From assembly GCF_024223415.1 (NCBI RefSeq), contig NZ_CP100500.1: DNA of 64,000 nt; one strand, 5' to 3'. This document shows positions 3,001-6,000 of the stretch, piece by piece. Source of the DNA: Escherichia coli. Lineage in GTDB: Bacteria > Pseudomonadota > Gammaproteobacteria > Enterobacterales > Enterobacteriaceae. The first letter of the stretch is position 1. Each line of letters begins with the position of its first letter. A program made the position numbers.

Positions 3001-6000
3001 TATCCACCAGAAAAAAGAACATTTGCTCTGGCATTATGGTCTATGACCGTGATTATCGCTCCGATATGTGGGCCGATATTAGGCGGTTATATTTGTGATA
3101 ACTTTAGCTGGGGTTGGATATTTTTAATCAATGTCCCTATGGGGATTATCGTCCTGACATTATGCTTAACCTTACTTAAAGGAAGAGAAACTGAGACTTC
3201 ACCGGTCAAAATGAATCTACCAGGACTGACCCTGTTAGTGCTCGGTGTTGGTGGCTTGCAAATTATGCTTGATAAAGGGCGCGATCTGGATTGGTTCAAC
3301 TCGAGTACAATAATAATATTAACAGTAGTATCAGTTATTTCTCTGATCTCTTTAGTCATTTGGGAGTCGACCTCAGAGAACCCGATTCTTGATCTCAGTT
3401 TGTTTAAGTCCCGTAACTTCACCATTGGTATTGTGAGTATCACATGCGCGTATTTATTTTACTCTGGAGCGATAGTCCTTATGCCGCAGTTACTCCAGGA
3501 AACAATGGGGTATAATGCGATTTGGGCTGGGCTTGCTTATGCGCCCATCGGCATCATGCCGCTATTAATATCACCTTTGATAGGACGTTATGGCAACAAA
3601 ATTGATATGCGGTTGTTGGTGACATTTAGTTTTTTAATGTATGCGGTTTGCTATTACTGGCGTTCTGTGACATTTATGCCAACGATTGATTTTACAGGCA
3701 TCATTTTGCCACAGTTTTTTCAGGGATTCGCCGTCGCCTGTTTCTTTTTACCCTTAACAACGATTTCGTTTTCAGGTTTGCCAGATAATAAATTTGCCAA
3801 TGCCTCGAGTATGAGTAATTTTTTTCGTACCTTGTCAGGATCAGTTGGTACGTCGTTGACAATGACGCTGTGGGGACGCCGAGAATCATTACACCATAGT
3901 CAGTTGACAGCAACCATCGATCAATTTAACCCCGTGTTTAATTCATCGTCACAAATTATGGATAAATACTATGGTTCGCTTTCAGGGGTTCTTAATGAAA
4001 TTAATAATGAAATAACTCAGCAGTCACTTTCAATTTCTGCAAATGAGATTTTCCGTATGGCGGCTATTGCTTTTATCTTACTTACGGTATTGGTTTGGTT
4101 TGCGAAACCGCCGTTTACAGCGAAAGGTGTTGGGTGATGGTAAAAAGAGAGAGCTATAGCAGGTAAGACGGTAGAATCTTAAGCCTGCGCCATCGGCAGC
4201 ATCGCTCACCCAGGGAAAGGATGGCGATGCTGCATTGAAAATTAATTAGCGGCCTTTTGCCAGATATTGCTCCATCTCTTCTTCCGGCACCATTCCACCT
4301 CCCGTCGCCCACACCAGATGAGTGGCATTACGCAGTTGTTCTGCGCTGAAACCGTGCATCTGTTGGTAACTTACTGATGCGCACACGCGCTGAGGCCCGG
4401 CCATACCCGCCAGTGCCGAAGGTTCAAGACGAATACCTTCTTCCTGCGTCAGCCAGCCAAGCATGTCATACATGGTTGGATCGCTAAGGGTATAGAAGCC
4501 ATCCAGCAGACGCTCCATTGCCCGCCCGACAAAGCCTGATGCGCGACCAACAGCAAGGCCATCCGCTGCGGTAAGGTTGTCGATACCAATATCCTGAACA
4601 GAGATCTGATCGTGTAATCCTGTATGGACGCCTAACAGCATACAAGGGGAGTGCGTTGGTTCGGCAAAAAAACAGTGAACATGATCGCCAAACGCCAGTT
4701 TAAGTCCGAATGCGACGCCACCAGGACCACCGCCAACACCACACGGCAGATAGACAAACAGAGGGTTATCAGCATCGACGATACGACCTTGCTCGGCAAA
4801 TTGCGCTTTAAGACGCTGGCCAGCGACGGAATACCCAAGGAACAACGTGCGGGAATTTTCGTCATCAATAAAGAAACAGTTCGGGTCAGACTGCGCTGCT
4901 TTACGTCCTTCCTCGACGGCAACACCATAATCTTGCTCATATTCCACGACCGTAACGCCATGGCTGCGCAGTTTCGCTTTTTTCCATGCCCGGGCATCAG
5001 CAGACATATGCACTGTCACCTTAAAGCCAATGCGGGCGCTCATAATGCCGATTGATAACCCCAGATTTCCGGTTGAGCCCACAGCAATGCTGTATTGGCT
5101 AAAGAACTGTTTAAACTCCGGAGAAAGCAGTTTGCTGTAGTCATCATCAAGCGTCAGCAACCCCGCTTCCAGAGCCAGTTTTTCTGCGTGTGCCAGGACT
5201 TCATAAATCCCGCCGCGTGCTTTTATGGAGCCGGAAATGGGCAAATGGCTATCTTTTTTCAGTAACAGTTGCCCGCTGATCGGTTGTTGATATTCCTTTT
5301 CCAGCCGTTTTTGCATAGCCGGAATGGCAACCAGTTCTGATTCAATAATCCCCCCAGTGGCAGCAGTTTCAGGAAATGCTTTTGCCAGATAGGGTGCAAA
5401 ACGGGATAAGCGCGCATGGGCGTCCTGAACATCCTGTTCGGTCAGGCCAACATAAGGTAAACCTTCAGCCAATGAGGTCGTGCCAGGATTAAACCAGGTG
5501 GTTTCTTTAAGAGCAACCAGATCCTTTACCAACGGATACTGGGCGATGAGCGAGTTCATTTTAGCGTTTTCCATAGTACGTCTCTTTGCGCTTAGATGAT
5601 AAATGACAGCAGGAATGTGCCCGCCAGAGCGACGACTGAAGCGATAAATGTCGCTGTCGTATAGTATTTAAATGTTTCATTGAGCGTAGCGCCGCAATAT
5701 TGCTTCACCAGCCAGAAAAGCGAGTCCGTAACGATCGTGCAGCCAATCGCGCCTGAACCGATAGCAATCGTAATAATTTCCGGGCTGATGTCGGGATACA
5801 GCGGCAGCACAATGATCCATATTTATATTTTCTTCTCCAGGTTGGCGATGCCAGTTGGCATGTTTTACTTACTTGCCTATATGGTTACTCGTTGGCGAGA
5901 ACAGAGGCGGAATTGGGGACAATTGTCCGGGAATTATTGTTATTTTTTATTGTATTGCCGTGTCAGGTGATAGGGCGTTGGATCTCGCCAGTGACGTCTG

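Follow-up and report, generated by a model that had tools for sequence, protein, structure and literature searches.

The locus between emrY and argW in the 64-kb stretch of Escherichia coli DNA analysed here (the window) is the csc-type allele of the argW-dsdCXA region, an allele found in approximately 49% of complete E. coli genomes. An intact dsdA stands beside a 3' remnant of dsdX, and a csc island lies where K-12 has the rest of dsdX and dsdC. As a whole, the explanation that regulated D-serine catabolism was lost here and a sucrose pathway was gained is very probably correct. The exchange of dsdCX for csc and its consequences are already known, long described and the accepted interpretation. 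This csc/dsd polymorphism decides whether a strain uses sucrose or instead tolerates and eats D-serine, a compound plentiful in urine. In EHEC, loss of dsdCX connects D-serine with a repressed type III secretion system and a restricted niche. One more genome with the csc allele adds nothing beyond its typing as csc+/dsdCX-, and why dsdA stays intact in csc+ lineages is a question of population genetics rather than one of a new system.

According to the ORF map and the annotation of relatives, ordinary E. coli chromosome makes up the left end of the window, beginning with evgA (406-1020, minus strand), emrK (1436-2599, plus strand) and emrY (2599-4137, plus strand), all named from the ORF map and the annotation of near-identical genomes. 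The nearest relatives of the window are KV7 (99.9% identity over 1-25000), SCU-316, NCTC9112 and an O78 strain. EC1515 is 100% identical over 4100-7100, and the RefSeq annotation of EC1515 and KV7 gives a gene map identical to that of the window.

The D-serine ammonia-lyase gene dsdA occupies 4246-5574 on the minus strand and encodes 442 amino acids without an internal stop. Its product shares 437 of 442 residues with K-12 DsdA, matches the D-serine ammonia-lyase equivalog TIGR02035 (NF002823) over the entire profile (positions 1-431 of 431) with 810.5 bits against a cutoff of 368.25, and retains the PLP-binding Lys118 in the SGSIKARGG motif. The gene is intact, as a first-pass annotation of the window had stated. 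Upstream of it, the native dsdX-dsdA intergenic spacer of 17 nt (5575-5591, minus strand) is the same as in K-12 by alignment.

Next to this spacer lies the remnant of dsdX, a pseudogene of 218 nt (5592-5809, minus strand), within which ORF mapping mechanically yields a short GntP-like reading frame of 72 amino acids (5592-5810, minus strand). In tblastn, this frame aligns with residues 374-445 of K-12 DsdX, with 70 of 72 residues identical (97%, E = 2e-39). It matches nothing but positions 374-445 of the 445 in the DsdX equivalog NF007395 (145.7 bits against a cutoff of 618) and positions 371-440 of the 440 in the Pfam family GntP_permease (PF02447). A complete DsdX permease of approximately 445 amino acids is not encoded at the locus, where C-terminal profile positions alone are represented. 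In near-identical genomes the RefSeq annotation (PGAP) labels the same fragment 'D-serine transporter DsdX, incomplete, missing N-terminus', and chance resemblance is therefore dismissed.

Alignment with K-12 dsdX places the breakpoint precisely. Near-identity, with five substitutions, extends through window position 5809; nucleotide identity stops between 5809 and 5810, and the sequence from 5810 on is unrelated. The junction (...GGCAGCA/CAATGATCC..., 5809-5810), which carries no strand, is placed likewise by strain comparison. Genuine dsdX DNA thus runs from the stop codon over 71 codons to 2 nt of the Met374 codon. Since the junction turns the ATG of Met374 into GTG, an ORF finder reports 72 codons. 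The first-pass annotation had seen the last 72 codons of a GntP-type permease upstream of dsdA, ending at 5830; the C-terminal DsdX fragment is real, but its true DNA is 71 codons plus 2 nt, and the end at 5830 overshoots by about 20 nt, 5810-5830 being csc-side sequence.

Of what K-12 carries beyond this point, nothing is left: the 5' 1120 nt of dsdX, the region between dsdX and dsdC, and dsdC itself are missing. The K-12 sequence from position 7710 of its record (L002) onwards, which holds the 5' end of dsdX and the intergenic region, is absent in the window, and the dsdC-dsdX control region with its presumed site of DsdC-dependent activation is accordingly absent at the locus. A six-frame tblastn search of the 64-kb window with K-12 DsdC gave no match at E <= 1e-3, in agreement with the earlier statement that the window holds no LysR-type dsdC, and tblastn with K-12 DsdX found no full-length dsdX there. 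With K-12 DsdC, DsdX and DsdA as queries against the whole window, the matches are dsdA and the dsdX remnant only. No divergent LysR-type dsdC is present beside dsdX; cscR is found in its position.

The csc island begins with a spacer upstream of cscR (5810-6040, plus strand), delimited by strain comparison and devoid of K-12 homology, in which the cscR promoter is presumed to lie. Short indels of 12-13 nt at 5840-5860 and approximately 5975-5990 vary among csc+ strains. EC100 has a 13-nt deletion between GTTGGC repeats, and STEC and several other strains have a 12-nt insertion, CGTCGAGAATTT; such indels could affect cscR expression. The gene cscR itself (6041-7036, plus strand) encodes the LacI-family sucrose-operon repressor of 331 amino acids. 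CscR matches LacI-family NCBIfam models, every score being under its curated cutoff, and RefSeq names it 'LacI family DNA-binding transcriptional regulator' in the nearest genomes and 'sucrose operon repressor CscR' in others. Antisense to cscR and directed towards dsdA lies cscA (7044-8477, minus strand), encoding a sucrose hydrolase (invertase) of 477 amino acids supported by RefSeq and by TIGR01322 (474.7 bits, cutoff 356). It is followed by cscK (8693-9607, plus strand), encoding a fructokinase of 304 amino acids (NF006957, 505.7 bits, cutoff 450), and by cscB (9679-10926, plus strand), encoding a sucrose:H+ symporter of the oligosaccharide MFS family with 415 amino acids (TIGR00882, 594 bits, cutoff 220). 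All four ORFs are full length by comparison with RefSeq annotation.

At its far end the replacement reaches the 3' end of argW, a tRNA-Arg(CCT) gene (11350-11424, minus strand) identified by ARAGORN and by Rfam (RF00005, 63.4 bits); the tRNA is the sole match in an Rfam scan of 4000-12000. The 3' end of argW faces the island, which thus sits between argW and dsdA and ends at the common dsdX junction. Between cscB and argW there is a DUF4942 fragment of 54 amino acids (11006-11170, minus strand), annotated in RefSeq and matching positions 13-60 of the 190 in PF13708 with 27.4 bits; nothing else separates island and tRNA gene. The fragment is probably the last relic of a mobile element once located at the argW 3' end. 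We found no integrase near this end of the island and, between 5500 and 11300, no copy of at least 11 nt of the argW 3' end in direct orientation.

Beyond argW, yfdC and then mlaA follow from 11500. Between mlaA and fadL, a reading frame of 426 amino acids rich in Asp and Asn (13663-14943, minus strand) has a GC content of 31-34%, as compared to approximately 50% in its flanks, and no match in Pfam or NCBIfam. Its KV7 counterpart is annotated as 'hypothetical protein' and is 6 nt longer. This low-GC frame looks like horizontally acquired DNA. Further along, the usher gene of a yfc-type fimbrial operon is split by a stop codon at 23558-23560 into two ORFs (22907-23560 and 23573-25558, plus strand). 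KV7 has G where the window has A at 23559, and its usher gene is intact, encoding approximately 879 amino acids. The window usher gene probably carries a nonsense mutation, likely from Trp to stop.

The arrangement at the dsd locus was surveyed in 5426 complete E. coli genomes, presence being defined as at least 80% query coverage. A 3-kb query spanning dsdA, the junction and cscR was covered in 2660 genomes, and elsewhere the match ends at query base 1710, which is window position 5809. An 80-mer centred on the junction was covered in 2664 genomes, and the K-12 segment lacking in the window, i.e. dsdC and the 5' part of dsdX, in 2698. A chimeric query of csc and dsdCX sequence found matches in 5386 genomes, the union of both alleles; csc and dsdCX thus overlap in only about 1% and together account for nearly the whole species. 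Seen in this light, the dsdA that had been called an 'orphan' is nothing unusual: E. coli has two major alleles at this locus, and it belongs to one of them.

Eleven csc+ loci were sampled from the matches to the 3-kb query so as to span 95.5-100% identity to the window. The junction lies at the same base in all eleven, which points to one ancestral event as the single origin of the csc replacement. A second, seemingly independent junction was considered in O157:H7 TR01, in which 39 nt of dsdX replace 39 nt of csc-side sequence (L015 4001-4046, corresponding to window 5810-5848). The TR01-type junction 80-mer is fully matched in one genome of 5426, and other O157:H7 genomes match it on the csc side only and hence do not have this junction. 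We set it aside as a singleton that could reflect either an assembly error or a conversion peculiar to this strain; the TR01 record has an internal stop in cscB as well.

The functional consequences have been described in strains with the same allele, an observation that goes back to Alaeddinoglu & Charles 1979, Jahreis et al. 2002 and Moritz & Welch 2006 (via PMC4366372). EDL933, as described by O'Boyle et al. 2020 (PMC7486766), gained cscBKAR through recombination; it no longer has dsdC, and its dsdX is truncated. In the wild-type context of this strain, a fragment from cscAp to dsdA, dsdA reporter output is low (63-134 RFU), and deletion of the cscR region gives 2001 RFU (PMC7486766). Spontaneous deletions that remove cscR and leave the cscA promoter beside dsdA give approximately 2000 RFU and D-serine catabolism (PMC7486766). 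Because deletions restore D-serine catabolism in EHEC, the DsdA enzyme must be competent but unexpressed. D-serine, for which CycA, SstT and DsdX are the uptake routes, is toxic to EHEC with the csc allele, where its entry persists through CycA and SstT (PMC7486766). An internal dsdA promoter is mentioned in the same work (PMC7486766); a simple sigma-70 scan of window positions 4100-7100 returned no promoter-like site, with 3.1 expected, and so neither supports nor places this promoter. Without dsdA in trans, neither EHEC nor EPEC can grow on D-serine, and most strains without dsdCX have cscBKAR instead (Connolly et al. 2015, PMC4366372). At the argW site, csc and dsd are largely mutually exclusive, even though some strains keep dsdC alongside csc, and the Csc pathway supports slow, CscR-limited growth on sucrose (Stephens et al. 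2024, PMC11251922). A 2026 study found that sucrose and D-serine phenotypes follow the csc and dsd alleles determined by PCR (PMC13054288). These last two reports agree that the sucrose and D-serine phenotypes oppose each other at the argW locus and that growth by Csc is slow (PMC11251922, PMC13054288).

We propose that one ancestral event placed approximately 5.5 kb, comprising cscR-cscA-cscK-cscB and the DUF4942 relic, beside the 3' end of argW, and that the same event would have deleted dsdC, the DsdC-activated promoter region of dsdX and the first 1120 nt of dsdX. Lacking the LysR activator DsdC and the upstream dsdX promoter region, dsdA would be only weakly transcribed. Judging by strains of the same allele, incoming D-serine would consequently not be degraded: entering via CycA and SstT, it would provide no carbon source and would inhibit growth. 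The presumed gain is a slow, CscR-repressed non-PTS sucrose route with uptake by CscB, hydrolysis by CscA and phosphorylation of fructose by CscK. DsdA is expected to stay enzymatically competent, and dsdA could be reactivated by deletions in which CscR is lost and the cscA promoter comes to lie nearer. For the strain of the window, silence of dsdA and sensitivity to D-serine are extrapolated, mainly from EHEC. The csc anatomy together with the published strains of this allele supports the trade-off predicted by the first-pass annotation, loss of inducible D-serine catabolism in favour of sucrose use.

The condition of the stranded dsdA deserves attention. It is intact (442-443 amino acids) in 11 of 11 sampled csc+ loci, with mean pairwise dS of 0.077, dN of 0.0058 and dN/dS of 0.075. 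Segregating sites are distributed over the codon positions as 18:2:79, so that 79 of 99 fall on third positions. The pattern looks like purifying selection, and a dsdA without decay is somewhat unexpected if the gene is silent. One alternative to silence is that dsdA has been rewired for useful expression without DsdC and is kept by selection for D-serine detoxification rather than growth. The promoter could then lie within the dsdX 3' fragment, or transcription could read through from the cscA promoter when sucrose relieves CscR repression. That cscA and dsdA share a strand, with no terminator-like minus-strand site from cscA to the dsdX remnant (the only minus-strand match lies inside the remnant), fits with read-through. 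However, wild-type EHEC with the csc allele is sensitive to D-serine, and the reporter fragment described above is low in output. Moreover, csc+ and dsd+ strains share DsdA alleles (two csc+ strains have the WP_000426427.1 of K-12), so that the low dN/dS may be inherited, whether by recombination or because the csc allele spread recently. The ratio of nonsynonymous to synonymous changes (N:S) is higher in the remnant (6:6) than in dsdA (20:85; Fisher p = 0.025), which would favour a rewired dsdA, but the contrast depends on MS 198-1 (L009), without which the remnant stands at 2:6 (p = 0.65). This strain has five amino-acid-changing substitutions in the 71 codons of the remnant and an ordinary dsdA, and is the sole visibly drifting lineage sampled. 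We did not rely on relaxed constraint of the remnant relative to dsdA, a signal that comes from this one strain. Altogether, we consider a rewired dsdA unlikely. Its most specific form, in which dsdA would be under csc control in about half of E. coli, by read-through from the cscA promoter once sucrose inactivates CscR, and would be kept by selection for that reason, is distinctly improbable; if true, it would couple D-serine detoxification to sucrose availability.

A second complete dsdCXA outside the window would maintain D-serine catabolism and make the dsdA described here a redundant leftover. Many K1 strains have a second complete dsdCXA copy. In the species survey, dsdCX occupied at most two places per genome (e.g. 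UTI89), and the chimeric query found a second place in 4 of 60 csc+ genomes among the matches listed. A few strains are reported to have both the csc and the dsd locus complete (PMC11251922). As a proxy for copies outside the 64-kb window, we counted the places per genome found by the chimeric query in the nearest relatives. SCU-316, KV7, NCTC9112 and GPEC1446 (99.9% identity) have one place each; dsdC and dsdX are thus not located elsewhere in these four genomes, and an operon-competent dsdX or dsdC, which would have overturned the first-pass reading, is by this proxy not to be expected in the strain of the window. The overlap of the two alleles across the species, about 1%, argues in the same direction. 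Although possible in principle, a second dsdCX copy is unlikely here, and we regard the reading of dsdA as a redundant leftover as very improbable. That the 72-codon ORF with its GTG at 5810 is a genuine small membrane protein built from the last two DsdX helices is scarcely credible: the frame is open from a GTG that arose at the junction, and the remnant is conserved in most csc+ strains, but this start came about by accident, the sigma-70 scan detected no promoter-like site, RefSeq classes the remnant as a pseudogene, one lineage has accumulated the amino-acid changes noted above, and the conservation resembles that of neighbouring DNA (pi of 0.0155, versus 0.021 for dsdA).

Two known systems come close to the window. 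With the dsdCXA operon of K-12 and CFT073 it shares dsdA at 99% identity, and it keeps both the dsdX-dsdA spacer and the final 218 nt of dsdX. The order in K-12 is dsdA - dsdX - dsdC, and in the window dsdA is likewise found beside emrY. In contrast to K-12 and CFT073, the window is devoid of dsdC, of the divergent dsdC/dsdX control region and of 84% of dsdX; the inducible dsdCXA operon as defined is therefore no longer present here. The other system is the cscRAKB/dsdX'-dsdA locus of O157:H7 EDL933 (z3623-z3626); EC3132 is likewise cited for this arrangement, and E. coli W has been discussed in connection with it. The window has the EDL933-type order emrY - dsdA - dsdX remnant - cscR - cscA - cscK - cscB - argW. 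Its junction base is common to other Shiga-toxin-type and O157 genomes and to ATCC 8739-like genomes, and its CscR (WP_001301925.1) is identical in STEC 2009C-3554 and O157:H7 TR01. The nearest relatives of the window are not O157:H7. Its spacer upstream of cscR is without the 12-nt insertion of the STEC sequences, and its argW comes directly after the DUF4942 relic, a place occupied in other strains by prophage or island DNA. The differences between the window and the EDL933-type locus are allelic only.
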